Shown here: piece by piece, positions 3,177-58,637 of the stretch
Layout: every line of letters begins with the position of its first letter
Position numbering within the stretch: position 1 is the first letter of the stretch
IMG/VR virus record: IMGVR_UViG_3300009158_002556
Coordinates: 16,927-80,926 of that record
Direction: 5' to 3' (one strand)
From: a virus
Taxonomy: Duplodnaviria > Caudoviricetes
DNA length: 64,000 bases
The notes under the pieces: model-generated
Database searches by the model: none
What the model saw: only the letters and a program-made list of their open reading frames with translations
What the model was told of the DNA's origin: nothing
Position numbers and translations under genes: made by a program

Positions 3177-3653
3177 ATGTCTAACTTTTCTCATTTATTA
3201 TCAAAACACGGAGTGATGTCTAGTTTTAATATCGCTAGGAAAATAAAAACCAGTGATATCAATAAAATTAAGAATAACATTATTGACAAATCCGATTCAA
3301 AACCAGATATTCTTAACAAATTGATATTATTAAAACAAGAAAGTCGATTTATGGATGACATACCTGGATTGATAATAGATGTAGAAAAATCAGACATGAT
3401 GATATACTTCGACGGACTTCCGACTCATGTAAAAAAAATTCTGGTACAAATATCAAATCAATTTGCTGCAAAGTCTATTGAAAAGAAATTAAATACACCA
3501 GAAATATTGGTGGCAATTCAACTGATATTTAATCAGTTAGGCATCGAATCCCAAGACCTACGTGACTTTAATAGAATGTTTAATAATCTTCCCCCACAAG
3601 ATAATATTGATGATGAAGAGGACGATGATGATGGTGAAGACGATGAATTTTAA
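3177..3653 (+). CDS. hypothetical protein with acidic C-terminal tail
   Basis: 158-aa ORF ending DDEEDDDDGEDDEF. Confidence 0.7.
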   Translation: MSNFSHLLSKHGVMSSFNIARKIKTSDINKIKNNIIDKSDSKPDILNKLILLKQESRFMDDIPGLIIDVEKSDMMIYFDGLPTHVKKILVQISNQFAAKSIEKKLNTPEILVAIQLIFNQLGIESQDLRDFNRMFNNLPPQDNIDDEEDDDDGEDDEF

Positions 3654-4783
3654 ATATTATTTATTGTATTAACAAACCAACTAATTTGTTCTGGTGTAAC
3701 ACTATAATGTAATCCAACATACAAACCATTTTCGTTAATAATGTCTGCGTGAGGATAATCCCCATTAGCATATTTCTTAAATGCAGTTTGTTTTAATAAG
3801 TTACCACCAATAATAGGACGATATTCTATACCTTTACGTTTACAGAAGTTTTTAATCTTATCAATAGTTTCTTTATTTTTTGCAATAATTGGCAAACTAA
3901 ATAAATTGTCTTCATTCTTGACTTGAACATTATAGAAAGAGTTTTGATCCAATAATGATGTAAATATCTCGCCACAGAATTTTCTATGACTTGTATATAA
4001 AGGAACACGTTTAAAATCTAATAAACCAATATACGCATGTATATCACTATTTCTAAAATTATTCCCTATACAATAAAAATCAAATAATGGATCTACATCT
4101 GGATTTTTATATTTTTCTTGATTCTCTGGTGGTAAATGACGATACATACCATGATTACGAATCATGTTGAATAGTTCATATTCTTTTTCATCATTGGTAA
4201 ATACAAACCCACCCTCAACACTTTGTAACATATGACCAAAATAAGTGCTTGTGGTTGATGTAAAAAATGAAGCAATATTTCTACCCCTAAACTTTGTAAA
4301 GGTACTTTCACAACTATCCAACATGATTCTAACCTTATACTTGGTTTTAAGATAGTTCAATTTATCAATGTCAGGTGAAATACCTAACAATGCAGTAATA
4401 AAGATTGTTCCAACCTCCGGGTCTTTCTTGAGAATATTTTCTACTTGATCCAGATCGATTGATAGATTGTTCAATTTAACATCTACAAAAACTGGTTCAA
4501 ATCCACACTTAATAAACGGAGTGATAGATGTAGCCCAAGTTACGGCCGGAAAAATGATCTTTCGTTTAGTTTCTACTTGATCAAGATAATAAGCAAGTAA
4601 AGTATTTGCTGTTGATCCACTTGATACAAATAAGGCATATTTACTACCAACGTATTTAGCCATCTTTTGCTCAAACTTTTGAACTTGTTTTCCATATGTC
4701 CAGAAATTGTTAGTATTTAAAAAGAATCCACATATCTTAAGTCTATCCCAAAACGTAAAGTGATTTGTATTTAGCTTCCACAT
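3650..4783 (-). CDS. colD: DegT/DnrJ family PLP enzyme, ColD-type GDP-4-keto-6-deoxymannose 3-dehydratase-like
   Basis: VSSGSTAN, LDSCES and STYFGHMLQSVEGG; His sits at the position of the usual Schiff-base Lys, as in ColD; divergent from gmd. Confidence 0.7.
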   Translation of the reverse strand: MWKLNTNHFTFWDRLKICGFFLNTNNFWTYGKQVQKFEQKMAKYVGSKYALFVSSGSTANTLLAYYLDQVETKRKIIFPAVTWATSITPFIKCGFEPVFVDVKLNNLSIDLDQVENILKKDPEVGTIFITALLGISPDIDKLNYLKTKYKVRIMLDSCESTFTKFRGRNIASFFTSTTSTYFGHMLQSVEGGFVFTNDEKEYELFNMIRNHGMYRHLPPENQEKYKNPDVDPLFDFYCIGNNFRNSDIHAYIGLLDFKRVPLYTSHRKFCGEIFTSLLDQNSFYNVQVKNEDNLFSLPIIAKNKETIDKIKNFCKRKGIEYRPIIGGNLLKQTAFKKYANGDYPHADIINENGLYVGLHYSVTPEQISWFVNTINNI

Positions 4784-4884
4784 ATGATATATGTATGAAT
4801 TTTAAAGTATGATTTATAATTTTATTTCAATTAAAATAATGTTGTATTACATAGAAAAAATACGTATCTATAAAGATTAATTGT

Positions 4885-6015
4885 ATGGAAGTTTTAAACA
4901 TCAAAGACGCACAGAGTTTTATTAACAATCGCAAAGTTGTATTTATTACCGGAGTAACAGGCCAAGATGGTAGTCACTTGGTTGATTATCTATTAGAAAC
5001 CACCGACTATTTCATAATTGGTGGGGCCAGAAGACTAAGTACAAAGAATCACGAAAACATCAGTCATATAAAAAATGACAGATTCAAACTAGTTAACTTT
5101 GATCTGAGTGATGTACATAGCATAAACAAAATTGTACAAGATCTTAAACCAGATTACTTTGTCAATTTGGCAGCACAAACCTTTGTTGGTTCATCATGGG
5201 ATTTTCCAGCACAAACATGGGAATGTAATACTACTGCTATTATTCATATTCTTGAAGCTATCAGACAACATAAACCAACTTGTAGATTTTATAACGCTGG
5301 CAGCAGTGAAGAATTTGGTGATGTTGAATATATTCCGCAAGATGAAAAACATCCATCTAAACCACGTAGTCCGTATGGTGCTAGTAAATCCGCCGCGAGA
5401 CAATTAGTTAAAGTATACAGAGAAAGTTATAATCTATATGCAATTCAAGGATTATTGTTCAATCATGAAGGCACTAGAAGAGGTGAAGAGTTTGTTACAC
5501 GTAAAATTACAAAGGGAGTAGCTAGAATCAAAAAAGCTATAGTTGAAGGTAAATCATTTGATTCAATCGAATTGGGTAATGTAAAAGCCAAAAGAGATTG
5601 GAGTGATGCGGAAGATTTTGTTAAAGGTATTTGGTTAATGTTAAATCAAGAAAAATGTAGAGTTGATATGGATAGTAATATGAAAATTGAAGAATATGTG
5701 TTATCTAGTAATGAAACACATACCATTGCAGAATTTGTATGGCATGCATTTAAAGCGGCTGATATTGAAGGTGCATGGCACGGACAAGCTGAATCCGCTG
5801 AATTTAGTATTAGTACAAAAGATGCAATCAAATATGAACCAGTGTCTTCTGTATTGGTTAAAATCAATCCTAAGTTTTATAGACCTGCTGAAGTGGACTT
5901 ATTACTGGGTGATAGCACCAAAGCCAGAAAAGAATTGGGATGGAAACCAGAAACTGACTTTGAAGGACTAATAAAAAAGATGGTTATTAACGATTTAAAA
6001 CAGGTCGGACTATAA
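4885..6015 (+). CDS. gmd: GDP-mannose 4,6-dehydratase
   Basis: ITGVTGQDGS, NLAAQTFV, SPYGASK, FNHEG, FVTRKIT and RDWSDAED motifs. Confidence 0.95.
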   Translation: MEVLNIKDAQSFINNRKVVFITGVTGQDGSHLVDYLLETTDYFIIGGARRLSTKNHENISHIKNDRFKLVNFDLSDVHSINKIVQDLKPDYFVNLAAQTFVGSSWDFPAQTWECNTTAIIHILEAIRQHKPTCRFYNAGSSEEFGDVEYIPQDEKHPSKPRSPYGASKSAARQLVKVYRESYNLYAIQGLLFNHEGTRRGEEFVTRKITKGVARIKKAIVEGKSFDSIELGNVKAKRDWSDAEDFVKGIWLMLNQEKCRVDMDSNMKIEEYVLSSNETHTIAEFVWHAFKAADIEGAWHGQAESAEFSISTKDAIKYEPVSSVLVKINPKFYRPAEVDLLLGDSTKARKELGWKPETDFEGLIKKMVINDLKQVGL

Positions 6016-6024
6016 TTATACAAT

Positions 6025-7512
6025 ATGAGCGACACTTATACATTATATAATGAAACGGTAATGGATCATTTCATGAACCCAAGAAATATGGGCGATATAA
6101 AAGACGCAGATGCTACTGGTGAAGTAGGCGCCGCAGCGTGTTTTTCGGGAGACACTCTAATAGCCACGGCGGATGGTAACTTACATACTCCTATTAAAAA
6201 TCTGGTTAATAAAATAATGCCTGTTTGGAGTTTTAATATAAAAACAAATTTATTTGAAATAAAAAATGCTATTGGAGTTGTTTCTGGTGTTAAAAAAGTA
6301 TATAAATTGACTTTGAATGATGGTGGTGAAGTAATATGTACTGAAGATCATAAGTTTTTAACTCGGCCAAAAAAACAATATGTTGAAAACAAAGTATTAA
6401 CAATAGATGATTCAATTTATCCGTTTAAACGAAAAATAATTAAAAATGGATATTGGGAAATTAGAAAATCTAAACATAGAAAAGAACATATTGAAATTTA
6501 TAAATTTCATAATCCAAATCATAATACAGATGGTTATGATATACATCATATAGATGAAAATAAAAGAAATAATCGTATAAGTAATTTTCAGGGATTATTA
6601 AAGTCAGAACATATTAAATTAACTAATCCAAATTGGGATAAACCAAAGACATTTGATGTATGCATTAAAAAAGATGTTTTATTAGAAAATATAGATAAAT
6701 TTGATGATAAAAGTGAGTTGGCAAATCATTTTGGAATATATACAGATCATTTAATGTATATAATTGGATATTATGATATTGATAAAAGATTCAAAAAACT
6801 AACCACTGAAGAACAAAGAAAATTAATATCTCAAAGACAAAGTGGTAAGAATAATTGTTATCATAAAATGTCAGATGAATGGAAACAAAACTTTGCTTCC
6901 AAACCAAAAGAAAAAAACCCTAAATGGTTAGGATATTCAGATGAAGATCTATTTAAAATTGGAAATACTTTATATAAAAAACATGGGAAATTAACAGCAG
7001 ATATTTGGCGAAATAATGCTAAACAAAATAAAATTCCACAAAGTTTATCAACCAGATTTTCATCGTGGAATTATTTTATTGGTGAATGTAAAGGTTATAA
7101 TCACAATATAATAAAACGACAGTATATCGGAGAAATTGAAACTTATACACTACAAGTTGAGGATAATAACAATTATGTTGTTTTATCTCGTATAACACAT
7201 AATGTTGAAGAAGGTATTGTTGTAAAAAATTGTGGTGATATTATGAAGATCACTCTTAAAATTGATGATGCTACACAAACAGTAACTGATGCTAGATTTA
7301 AGACATTTGGGTGTGGCAGTGCGATAGCTGCTTCCAGTATGGCTACTGAATTAATAAAAGGTCGTACTATAGAAGAACTTCAGAAAAATTTTAACAATGA
7401 TGATATTGTTACTGCGTTGGGCGGCCTTCCACCAGTAAAAATCCATTGTTCAGTTTTGGCCACCGAGGCACTTAATGCCGCGTTAGAAAATTACAAAAAT
7501 AAAAATAAATAA
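6025..7512 (+). CDS. iscU: IscU/NifU-N Fe-S scaffold precursor containing an intein (131 aa after splicing)
   Basis: Exteins join to DHFMNPRNMG...GAAA-CGDIMK...ARFKTFGCGSAIA...LPPVKIHCS, with three Cys ligands and the LPPVK motif. Confidence 0.92.
   Translation: MSDTYTLYNETVMDHFMNPRNMGDIKDADATGEVGAAACFSGDTLIATADGNLHTPIKNLVNKIMPVWSFNIKTNLFEIKNAIGVVSGVKKVYKLTLNDGGEVICTEDHKFLTRPKKQYVENKVLTIDDSIYPFKRKIIKNGYWEIRKSKHRKEHIEIYKFHNPNHNTDGYDIHHIDENKRNNRISNFQGLLKSEHIKLTNPNWDKPKTFDVCIKKDVLLENIDKFDDKSELANHFGIYTDHLMYIIGYYDIDKRFKKLTTEEQRKLISQRQSGKNNCYHKMSDEWKQNFASKPKEKNPKWLGYSDEDLFKIGNTLYKKHGKLTADIWRNNAKQNKIPQSLSTRFSSWNYFIGECKGYNHNIIKRQYIGEIETYTLQVEDNNNYVVLSRITHNVEEGIVVKNCGDIMKITLKIDDATQTVTDARFKTFGCGSAIAASSMATELIKGRTIEELQKNFNNDDIVTALGGLPPVKIHCSVLATEALNAALENYKNKNK
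6139..7230 (+). mobile_element. 364-aa intein with HNH homing endonuclease
   Basis: Starts CFSGDT (Cys1), block B CTEDHKF, block F TYTLQVEDNNNY, ends VVKN before Cys+1; central HHIDENKRNNRISN HNH motif and a basic NUMOD-like segment. Confidence 0.92.
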
Positions 7513-7520
7513 ATTAAGTT

Positions 7521-7781
7521 ATGAATAAATTCGAAACACAAACACCAAAGCTAAATTTTAGCATCAAAGATACTCAACCAGTTGCATGTCATGATTGTAA
7601 GGGTCAAGTATTTGCAAATGGTATCATACTCAGAAAAGTTAGTAAAATACTAGCAGGTACTGATAAGGATGCACTTGTTCCAGTAACTATACCATATTGT
7701 GTCAATTGTTTATCTGTTCTAGAAGATTTGTTACCAGACGAATTAAAAAGTAACAATTCAAACAAAATCAGTCTTGTTTAA
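7521..7781 (+). CDS. small zinc-ribbon protein
   Basis: CHDC and CVNC pairs in 86 aa. Confidence 0.65.
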   Translation: MNKFETQTPKLNFSIKDTQPVACHDCKGQVFANGIILRKVSKILAGTDKDALVPVTIPYCVNCLSVLEDLLPDELKSNNSNKISLV

Positions 7782-16423: not shown

Positions 16424-17434
16424 CTACATATTTAATTTATTTTTAATAAAAGTAGAAGATATATTTTTGGTTCTTTCTATTAAATGTAATTTATCGATGT
16501 GTACTTGATAATACTTGTTAATATAATCTTCATTTTCTCTACCCGCCACAACATAATCCGCACTAATCTTATTAAGAAGATTGTCTGTCACAACTAAGTC
16601 GGCATTTTCATATACATCATCTACGTATTTACACGATTTTACTATTTCAAGTCGATCTTTATATGGTATAGTAGGTTTATTTTTATAAGTCATTACATCT
16701 TCATCATTATGAATGCCAACTATTAACTTACCAAAATTATCTTTGATTCGTTTGAACAAATTTAAATGTCCTATATGAAACATATCAAATACTCCATACG
16801 TATATGCGGTGTATTCGTCTTTTGGTACAACAACATTTTTATCAGGACTATAATTCGGTTTTTCTTCCATAAAATCTACACCATATCTAAATTGCAGATA
16901 TTGATCTAAATGTCTAGGGCATTTAAAATCTAACGTATTAAGTTCAACTGATTCTAATTCATCATAAAAGTGTTTTGGAGTATAAATGTTTGACCATGTA
17001 ATACTCTTTACAAATTTAGAATCGATATACCAAAAGTATATATCCACATGTGTCATTGTAAATTGAGGGTTGTTTTTTGGATATATACAAATATATTCGT
17101 TAGTCGAATGATGTATAATATAATAGTCTTGTGATAATCGTTCACATAACATCTCACTATTAAATTTTTCTTTTTCAAATAATATACTTATATCTAAATC
17201 ACAATCATGATTTATTATTTTTTTATTACGATATGCACCTAATAAAGTACCATAATCTAACCAATATTTTATGTTTAATTCTTGAAGAATATTTGTTACA
17301 CTTTTGAGTTCAATTACATCATATTTTCTATCACAATTGGATGAGATCATATTTTTCTCTTTAATTGTAGTTGCTAAACAAAAATCAGAATCAATTATAT
17401 TAGATTGTTCTTGATGTGATTTAAATTTACTCAT
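16424..17434 (-). CDS. licD: LicD phosphotransferase fused to TagD-like cytidylyltransferase
   Basis: N-half YWLDYGTLLGAYR...HDCDLDI (LicD); C-half GVFDMFHIGHLNL (HxGH) and RTKNISST. Confidence 0.88.
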   Translation of the reverse strand: MSKFKSHQEQSNIIDSDFCLATTIKEKNMISSNCDRKYDVIELKSVTNILQELNIKYWLDYGTLLGAYRNKKIINHDCDLDISILFEKEKFNSEMLCERLSQDYYIIHHSTNEYICIYPKNNPQFTMTHVDIYFWYIDSKFVKSITWSNIYTPKHFYDELESVELNTLDFKCPRHLDQYLQFRYGVDFMEEKPNYSPDKNVVVPKDEYTAYTYGVFDMFHIGHLNLFKRIKDNFGKLIVGIHNDEDVMTYKNKPTIPYKDRLEIVKSCKYVDDVYENADLVVTDNLLNKISADYVVAGRENEDYINKYYQVHIDKLHLIERTKNISSTFIKNKLNM

Positions 17435-57458: not shown

Positions 57459-58637
57459 CTATCTTCCCACCTCACTAAAATAGGTATTTTTAGCAGTTTG
57501 ATAATCCATACCAATCATTTGGTTATAATAAAGAATATCATCCTTTAGTCTATTTTCAGCTTTCAAAGTCTGATATCTAGCAATTGCCTTTGCTTTCCAC
57601 CACTCCAAAATAGCCTTTTGTGTGTATAAAGGATTGAATATCAATTTACTTTCATCAATCTTACTACACAAAAAGTCTTTGGTGTTCTTATATGGACAAG
57701 CATAATATGTACCCCGTTCAAATCCATGTACATAGGTGCTTTGTTTAATACCCAACTCTGAGAAAATCATACTAATAACCCTAGCTTTTGCTCCGGTTAC
57801 AGGCCCACTTACACCTTCTCGTTGTGTCATAGCCTTTTGATATTTATCAGCTTTATTGGTTTTAATCCAATCATGCCAAACTTTATAAATAACATCATCT
57901 GGTTTAATAGACATCTTACCGGCGCTTGCACCACACTTATGCCACCATTTTAGACTATTATACATACTATAACTGCCGTAAAGGCTCGTTGTAGTGATTC
58001 CAACCAAAAGCTGGTCATATAGAGCCTGCCATGCGTTCCTGACCGTCTCTGCCGTGACTAAAGCAGCAATTAACTTACCTCCTAGGAAATTATATCCAAA
58101 AGGTTGGGTGCTCATGATACAACTACCAATGGCACTATGAGCCAATCGTTTTTTCTTCAACTTATCATCTGCAGTCCAACCAATATATTTATCTCGGTCA
58201 GTAATAGTAATAACATCACTGGACATACTAATGACTCCCAAATATCTTGGATTGTCTAGATTGCCATCTGTAATTAGAAACTTTACGAATCTACCAGGCG
58301 TTTGAGCAAACTCCATAGTATGAACAAAGGTTCTAAGCATCAACCAATCATTCTCTAGGATTTTATTGTTTACATGTACAACGGTAGGATTTAAGTCTTG
58401 GATCTCTTTGATAGTCAACGACTCATTGTGAATATCGGTTGGAGTCCAAATTTTGGCTTTGACCTGAGAGGCTCTTGAAGAGTAGTTATTTAACTCTTGT
58501 ACCTCAATCCATTTTTTGTAAAAGGTTTGTTCTTCTACACTCATGGATTTTAAAAAATCCAAGTTCTCAACCAACTTTTGTTTGTTAACATTATAATCAA
58601 ATGCTTCAATCCCGAAAAATTCTTGCAGTGCGTCCAT
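57459..58637 (-). CDS. DUF4338 / Druantia DruA-like protein
   Basis: RDKYIGW, QPFGYNFLGGKLIA and TTTSLYG..SMY motifs. Confidence 0.72.
   Translation of the reverse strand: MDALQEFFGIEAFDYNVNKQKLVENLDFLKSMSVEEQTFYKKWIEVQELNNYSSRASQVKAKIWTPTDIHNESLTIKEIQDLNPTVVHVNNKILENDWLMLRTFVHTMEFAQTPGRFVKFLITDGNLDNPRYLGVISMSSDVITITDRDKYIGWTADDKLKKKRLAHSAIGSCIMSTQPFGYNFLGGKLIAALVTAETVRNAWQALYDQLLVGITTTSLYGSYSMYNSLKWWHKCGASAGKMSIKPDDVIYKVWHDWIKTNKADKYQKAMTQREGVSGPVTGAKARVISMIFSELGIKQSTYVHGFERGTYYACPYKNTKDFLCSKIDESKLIFNPLYTQKAILEWWKAKAIARYQTLKAENRLKDDILYYNQMIGMDYQTAKNTYFSEVGR

Follow-up and report, generated by a model that had tools for sequence, protein, structure and literature searches.

Any intein must be inserted before a Cys, Ser or Thr residue, and conserved active-site residues are typical insertion sites. 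Ribonucleotide reductase (RNR) is a classic phage host of inteins, and the intein of SufB is fixed in the chromosome and carries a LAGLIDADG nuclease and the canonical penultimate His. Inteins of phage RNRs have been documented (PMC3653736), and the established precedent for splicing that is sensitive to stress is the SufB intein (PMC6195587, citing Topilina 2015; PMC8891592), which is reported to be very readily inhibited under oxidative and nitrosative stress (PMC6195587). A cysteine toggle is used by the DnaBi1 intein (PMC6195587). Marine T4-like viruses carry iscU as an auxiliary gene, often together with other iron-sulphur (Fe-S) genes (Nishimura et al. 2017, PMC5332604), and inteins are not mentioned in that paper. 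Here, an intein-interrupted iscU is described from a 64,000-nucleotide stretch of Caudoviricetes DNA (IMG/VR record IMGVR_UViG_3300009158_002556, positions 16,927 to 80,926), the whole of which is referred to below as the window. As in the viruses of Nishimura et al., iscU is found in a T4-like viral genome, but the gene is in this case interrupted. Like the Mycobacterium tuberculosis SufB (Pps1) intein, the element interrupts an Fe-S cluster assembly protein, is of class 1 and has cysteines at both the first intein position (Cys1) and the first position after the intein (Cys+1). However, the host protein is the IscU scaffold of the ISC system, whereas SufB belongs to SUF. The insertion point is also at a cluster-ligand residue, which is not reported for SufB. 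Additionally, the phage IscU intein is polymorphic and of the HNH type, in contrast to the fixed, chromosomal LAGLIDADG element of SufB.

The element is very probably a selfish homing intein of class 1 that still is, or until very recently was, active, and that would splice to release a normal IscU. A single uninterrupted open reading frame (ORF; 6025-7512, plus strand) encodes a 495-amino acid precursor, composed of a 38-amino acid N-extein, a 364-amino acid intein and a 93-amino acid C-extein. The Pfam NifU_N (PF01592) match is split between two stretches of the precursor (5.4e-44, 149.8 bits). The IscU chains of the PDB, which match the precursor with E values of about 1e-30, are similarly aligned in two pieces (precursor residues 8-39 and 403-493), both meeting at Cys36 of 9wfy_D, the first ligand Cys. 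The N-extein (6025-6138, plus strand, residues 1-38) covers NifU_N/IscU positions 5-36, ends with GEVGAAA and is collinear with the intein-less alleles described below. The C-extein (residues 403-495, at 7231-7509, with the stop codon extending the feature to 7512, plus strand) has its NifU_N match at residues 400-495, is 45-55% identical to IscU and ISCU chains of the PDB, and contains all NifU_N/IscU features, that is, the three ligand Cys, the equivalents of Asp39 and His105 (E. coli numbering) and the LPPVK motif (residues 468-472, 7426-7440, plus strand). Residues 27-126 of E. coli IscU (3lvl_A) align with precursor residues 393-494, which places Cys+1 (C403, 7231-7233, plus strand) on C37, the equivalence proposed in a preliminary description of the locus. 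The cluster ligands C403, D405, C430 (7312-7314, plus strand), H474 and C475 (7444-7449, plus strand) are all located within the C-extein, and in an AlphaFold2 model of the precursor this extein folds as the IscU core, with a root-mean-square deviation of 1.5 A to human ISCU over about 91 columns (Foldseek). With every ligand in the one extein that the model folds as an IscU core, the earlier claim that the unspliced precursor is unable to form a normal cluster site is conjectural. Conservation was assessed in an alignment of 40 HNH-type homologs with an intein at the same position, before the first ligand Cys (site a), with identities down to 35%; C403, G404, D405, C430, K472, H474 and C475 are invariant in this set.

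The intein itself (6139-7230, plus strand, residues 39-402, from CFSGDTLI to GIVVKN) is recognised by Pfam Intein_splicing (2e-11), and corresponds to a 1092-nucleotide insertion relative to the empty alleles. The boundaries and length given for it previously hold to the base, on the evidence of both the domain matches and the intein-less alleles. Its N-terminal splicing region (6139-6474, plus strand; TIGR01445 intein_Nterm, 6.4e-12, residues 39-113) comprises blocks A and B, with Cys1 (C39) and the Thr-x-x-His of block B (T106-E-D-H109). This is followed by an HNH_3 homing-endonuclease motif (6487-6612, plus strand, residues 155-196, ..DIHHIDENKRNNRISN..SEH..), for which Pfam HNH_3 (PF13392) gives 26.1 bits against a cut-off of 24.8 (E 6.9e-6). 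The nuclease is thus of the HNH rather than the LAGLIDADG type, as originally noted, and its catalytic His, Asn and distal His are present (H175, N187 and H196). A region of about nine helices in the AlphaFold2 model (6640-7092, plus strand, residues 206-356) separates the HNH motif from the strands of C-terminal splicing; it is common to the HNH inteins of RNRs and is presumed to bind DNA. The C-terminal splicing region (7099-7230, plus strand; TIGR01443 intein_Cterm) comprises blocks F and G. In block F (YTLQVEDNNNYVV), position F:4 is Thr, where Asp is commonest, and F:13 is Asn (N382), where His is commonest. Block G ends with K401-N402, so that the penultimate residue (G:6) is Lys and the intein finishes with VVKN, followed by Cys (block nomenclature and usual residues as in PMC4031507).

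With Cys at its first position and Thr instead of Cys at F:4, the intein is assigned to class 1, and class 3 is ruled out. C39, T106, H109, H175, N187, N383, G397, N402 and C403 are invariant across the 40 homologs, thus including the C-terminal Asn and the Cys that follows it (N402/C403; here and below, a slash marks a splice junction), while H196 and K401 are kept in at least 90%. The AlphaFold2 model (mean predicted local distance difference test score 85) matches the HINT inteins Ssp DnaB (1mi8, 6frg), Npu DnaB (4o1r) and DnaE (Foldseek, E 6e-8 to 3e-5). By its sequence, the element is a real class 1 intein in a phage IscU, and from the conservation of its residues we infer that it is active in both splicing and DNA cleavage. 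The His residues of G:6 and F:13, which commonly assist splicing but are not obligatory, are both absent, with K401 and N382 in their places. Lack of a His at G:6 is shared with the Ssp DnaE intein, and splicing is known to occur in inteins of this kind (Chen, Benner and Perler 2000, as referred to in PMC4031507). Unlike the Ssp DnaE type, however, Lys or Arg at G:6 is conserved together with Asn at F:13 across the whole lineage.

A scan of IMG/VR for related loci found 13, of which 10 (L003-L012) carry an intein-less iscU of 129-131 codons, with exteins 95-98% identical to those of the window. A search for empty alleles had been called for by the preliminary description, and these 10 contigs provide them. 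Their iscU reads exactly as predicted for the ligated exteins (...GEVGAAA-CGDIMKITL...). In blastn comparisons of the window with these contigs, alignments break off at 6141 and resume at 7231, and the insertion is therefore exactly 1092 nucleotides. Across the 60 bp that span the junction, the window is a single synonymous base apart from the empty alleles L005-L008. On the basis of this near-identity, 6109-6138 is marked as the left half of a presumed homing site that would continue at 7231-7260 in the uninterrupted gene, and that the HNH nuclease presumably recognises. The gene order is kept in the related contigs, with the GDP-mannose 4,6-dehydratase gene (gmd) upstream of iscU. Their flanking DNA is 70-85% identical to the window, and they thus represent related phages and not the same population.

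The history of the intein disagrees with that of the gene it interrupts. Between the window and L001, a relative that also carries an intein at site a, the inteins are 95% identical at the amino acid level, with a synonymous divergence (dS) of 0.24 and a ratio of nonsynonymous to synonymous divergence (dN/dS) of 0.10. In the same comparison the exteins are 60-65% identical, with a proportion of synonymous differences (pS) of 0.68 and a dS that is saturated, at about 1.8, and the neighbouring gmd has a dS of 1.0. The exteins of the window are far closer to those of the empty alleles L003-L005 (dS 0.20-0.31). In maximum-likelihood (ML) trees, the window exteins are placed among the empty alleles (path 0.06-0.07), and the window intein is sister to that of L001 (support 98/96). 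With no more than 133 columns to build on, the extein tree is largely unresolved, good support being found for 1 of its 21 inner branches, and the discordance is therefore argued mainly from the pairwise distances. The intein also differs in composition, with a GC content of 25%, compared with 37-42% for the exteins and 34.5% for gmd, and a GC content at third codon positions of 12%, compared with 25-37% and 22%, respectively. For residues 206-345, the proportion of nonsynonymous differences between the window and L001 is 0.009, and pS is 0.161. The dN/dS of 0.10 points to purifying selection on the intein with its function retained, and the distances indicate that it was recently transferred laterally between phages. 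An intein that appears much younger than its host gene, with a foreign composition and under purifying selection, has the signature expected of homing.

Thus, a selfish homing element is favoured because of the empty alleles, the disagreement between intein and extein histories and the foreign base composition. In the proposed mechanism, iscU would be translated as the 495-amino acid precursor, from which the intein would excise itself, ligating the exteins of 38 and 93 amino acids. The product would be a 131-amino acid IscU in which no cluster ligand is missing and the LPPVK chaperone motif is present. During co-infection, the HNH_3 nuclease would cut an intein-less iscU at the conserved GAAA/CGD-coding site, and repair of the cut allele would copy the intein in. 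Lateral transfer of the intein between diverged iscU alleles is indirect support for such cleavage. The intein lies before a ligand Cys presumably because Cys, Ser or Thr is needed at the +1 position, and because the invariant active-site DNA offers a stable homing target, one which the host could not delete imprecisely. Several stages of the homing cycle are represented among the relatives: some have an empty site, some the full HNH intein, one an intein shortened by 20 amino acids, and others mini-inteins of 138-236 amino acids. The shortened form is the 344-amino acid site-a intein of L002, in which 20 residues (GIYTDHLMYIIGYYDIDKRF in the window) are missing from the helical, presumed DNA-binding region, while the HNH motif is intact. 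This loss may be a first step of nuclease decay.

The architecture, consisting of Intein_splicing plus HNH_3, is the same as that of HNH_3 inteins of RNR large subunits (for example, the RNR of Synechococcus phage S-CBWM1), although the host gene and the insertion site are different. When the intein alone was searched for, 1248 relatives were found among 1.8 billion representative proteins, and the nearest of these outside IscU are the RNR inteins. Over part of their length, either the helices with the C-terminal splicing region or the N-terminal splicing region with the HNH motif, they are 36-44% identical to the window intein.

The distribution of IscU inteins was surveyed in the best 120 of 958 database relatives of the precursor (E < 1e-3, 272-867 amino acids). 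At least 108 protein clusters have an IscU intein (108 of these 120), and none is annotated as intein-bearing. The intein is at site a only in 84 clusters, at site a and at a second site (site b, before the second ligand Cys, FG/C...HN/CGSAI) in 18, and at site b only in six; the remaining 12 have no intein. No intein was found before the third ligand Cys (H/C) in the 120. The preliminary description knew of no IscU example. This stands as far as the literature is concerned, as a full-text search of about 8.4 million papers, which did not extend to the supplement of Novikova 2015, turned up no description of an IscU or NifU intein, and the main text of that survey names neither protein. The site is not rare, however, given the 108 intein-bearing clusters.

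Three kinds of site-a intein occur: HNH forms of about 320-375 amino acids, mini-inteins of 138-236 amino acids, and LAGLIDADG forms of about 372-399 amino acids, which make up a lineage of their own. The first residue is Cys in 94 of the 96 site-a inteins, and the endings are KN/C in 77, RN/C in seven, HN/C in 11 and SN/C in one, with HN/C found in the LAGLIDADG lineage and a few mini-inteins. The penultimate Lys of the window (VVKN) had therefore been read correctly but is no oddity, since Lys or Arg is standard in the lineage (84 of 96). Site-b inteins, carried by 24 of the 120 homologs, all end with HN/C. Within the phage clade of the window, L001 has an intein at site a, L013 at site b, and L002 at both sites. 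In this last sister phage (L002:5941-8433, IMGVR_UViG_3300044957_000346), the second intein is an unrelated one of 333 amino acids, located before the second ligand Cys (KTFG/CLGGNSP...MSHN/CGSAI). Pfam names no nuclease domain in the L002 site-b intein, and P0078 gives weak Hint matches only.

A degenerate junction pattern was also used for searching, which undercounts, as G-[IVM]x3-K-N-C-G-D is demanded. It found nine true cases in IMG/VR, one of them on a contig labelled as a giant-virus metagenome-assembled genome (MAG). In 185,579 species-representative genomes, two of the 21 matches are real, both in DPANN archaeal MAGs, and the other 19 were rejected as chance matches. The archaeal cases, L029:3408-6358 (Nanoarchaeota, JADFNI010000009.1) and L033 (Woesearchaeota), have a 321-amino acid HNH_3 intein with a Lys-Asn end at the same IscU site. 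The L029 host protein carries a C-terminal BFD-like [2Fe-2S] domain, and its gene overlaps an upstream class-V aminotransferase gene (NifS/IscS-like). A mini-intein at site a is found in L038 and in the contig with the giant-virus label, which is taken from the record only (L043, IMGVR_UViG_GVMAG-M-3300009149-34_000001; a 309-amino acid IscU, ..GIIIKN/CGDVM). P0049 (NCBI: ISU1, Symbiodinium microadriaticum, 523 amino acids) does not carry an intein but is a triple IscU repeat, with the spliced IscU aligning three times in tandem (56-178, 253-343 and 401-516).

Several observations weigh against a functional and recently mobile homing intein. The extein tree is short and poorly resolved, the empty alleles come from populations other than that of the window, with flanks only 70-85% identical, and the HNH_3 score barely exceeds the Pfam cut-off. 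As the block-F His and the penultimate His are both absent, splicing could also be slow or conditional. In a rival explanation, the intein is kept as a conditional regulator, its splicing being responsive to redox state or metals and active IscU being released only under suitable conditions in infection. We consider this unlikely, and the iron or redox switch proposed in the preliminary description gains no support from the sequence. In a specific version, transesterification would be blocked by a disulfide between Cys1 and Cys+1, or by Zn, Fe or a nascent cluster bound in the precursor at the metal site, of which Cys+1 is itself a ligand. The prerequisites of a sensor intein of the SufB or DnaBi1 kind are present, with Cys at both the first intein position and the +1 position, the latter being the C37-equivalent ligand, and the remaining ligands D405, C430, H474 and C475 are in the same extein, folded as the IscU core in the AlphaFold2 model. 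There are also precedents in the mycobacterial SufB intein and the cysteine toggle of DnaBi1 (PMC6195587). However, sensitivity of this kind comes with any Cys1/Cys+1 intein, for thiols and metals alike, and is in itself no sign of adaptive use, and a position before a conserved Cys is a requirement of any intein. A conserved extra cysteine that could act as a disulfide partner was looked for in the intein and ruled out: C105, C213, C278 and C355 are not conserved, and many homologs have Val, Ala or Ser at the position of C105.

Two features of the distribution favour regulation: nuclease-less mini-inteins persist at site a in many lineages with their splicing residues conserved, and a second intein family is located before the second ligand Cys. 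Mini-inteins would however also persist under neutrality, as nothing short of a precise deletion gives back an intact host gene. Close relatives differ in whether they carry the intein, which is thus not fixed as a domesticated regulator would be. The alleles closest to the window in their exteins are empty, and the phage lineage thus fares well when the intein is lacking. The recent lateral transfer and foreign composition of the intein also argue against regulation, and a lytic cycle leaves little time for reversible control. It is similarly doubtful that the IscU inteins of sites a and b form a self-gated scaffold, with splicing held back by occupancy of the ligand site (Zn, Fe or a nascent cluster) or by oxidation; if true, this would be a viral post-translational feedback on scaffold supply during infection. 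Finally, a dead intein, with splicing lost and iscU inactivated and heading for loss, is very improbable because the 495-codon frame is open, dN/dS is 0.10 and the catalytic positions are invariant, with all IscU ligands and LPPVK intact, and although the block-F and penultimate His are replaced and iscU is an accessory gene absent from many related phages (PMC5332604), the Lys and Asn replacements are lineage-wide, including in 40%-identical members. A homing intein that is active, or was until very recently, is thus retained as the favoured explanation.

By its gene content, the window is a contig of a T4-like phage. Its family B DNA polymerase is of the T4 type (phrog_262, 587 bits), the best cultured match being that of Microcystis phage Mel-JY01 (41%). 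Many sugar-modifying enzymes are encoded as well, together with an ATPase resembling a clamp loader and a protein resembling a tail lysozyme. No near-identical record was found among 50,697 phage genomes. Just upstream of iscU (3650-6015), genes for a DegT-type pyridoxal phosphate enzyme and GDP-mannose 4,6-dehydratase are arranged head-to-head, and the many glycosyltransferases and sugar-nucleotide enzymes of the window suggest a large phage-encoded glycan pathway. Directly 3' of iscU, an 86-amino acid ORF (7521-7781, plus strand) has two Cys pairs (CHDC ... CVNC) with a zinc-ribbon-like look, and no match in Pfam or PHROG. Its DNA is kept beside iscU in related contigs, with blastn alignments reaching window positions 7709-7748 in L003-L008. 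No ORF of at least 100 amino acids in the window has the CxxxCxxC motif of a radical-SAM client. A 392-amino acid ORF (57459-58637, minus strand) matches Pfam DruA (Druantia defence protein A, 6.5e-22), which is unexpected on a phage contig.

With these elements, IscU, the central scaffold of the ISC system, would join the proteins known to host inteins, with two insertion points, each before a ligand Cys, and a mainly viral distribution. For annotation, IscU inteins would explain 'NifU-like' metagenome proteins of 280-850 amino acids. If it splices at all, the whole lineage does so without either of the His residues usually credited with assisting Asn cyclisation, and the role of the conserved Lys is then directly open to test. 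Because the nucleophile at +1 doubles as a metal ligand, the locus may also be well suited to a clean test of conditional splicing, an idea under debate. Finally, because empty, full-length, partly deleted and mini forms all occur naturally, IscU may offer a compact system in which to follow the homing cycle in uncultured phages.

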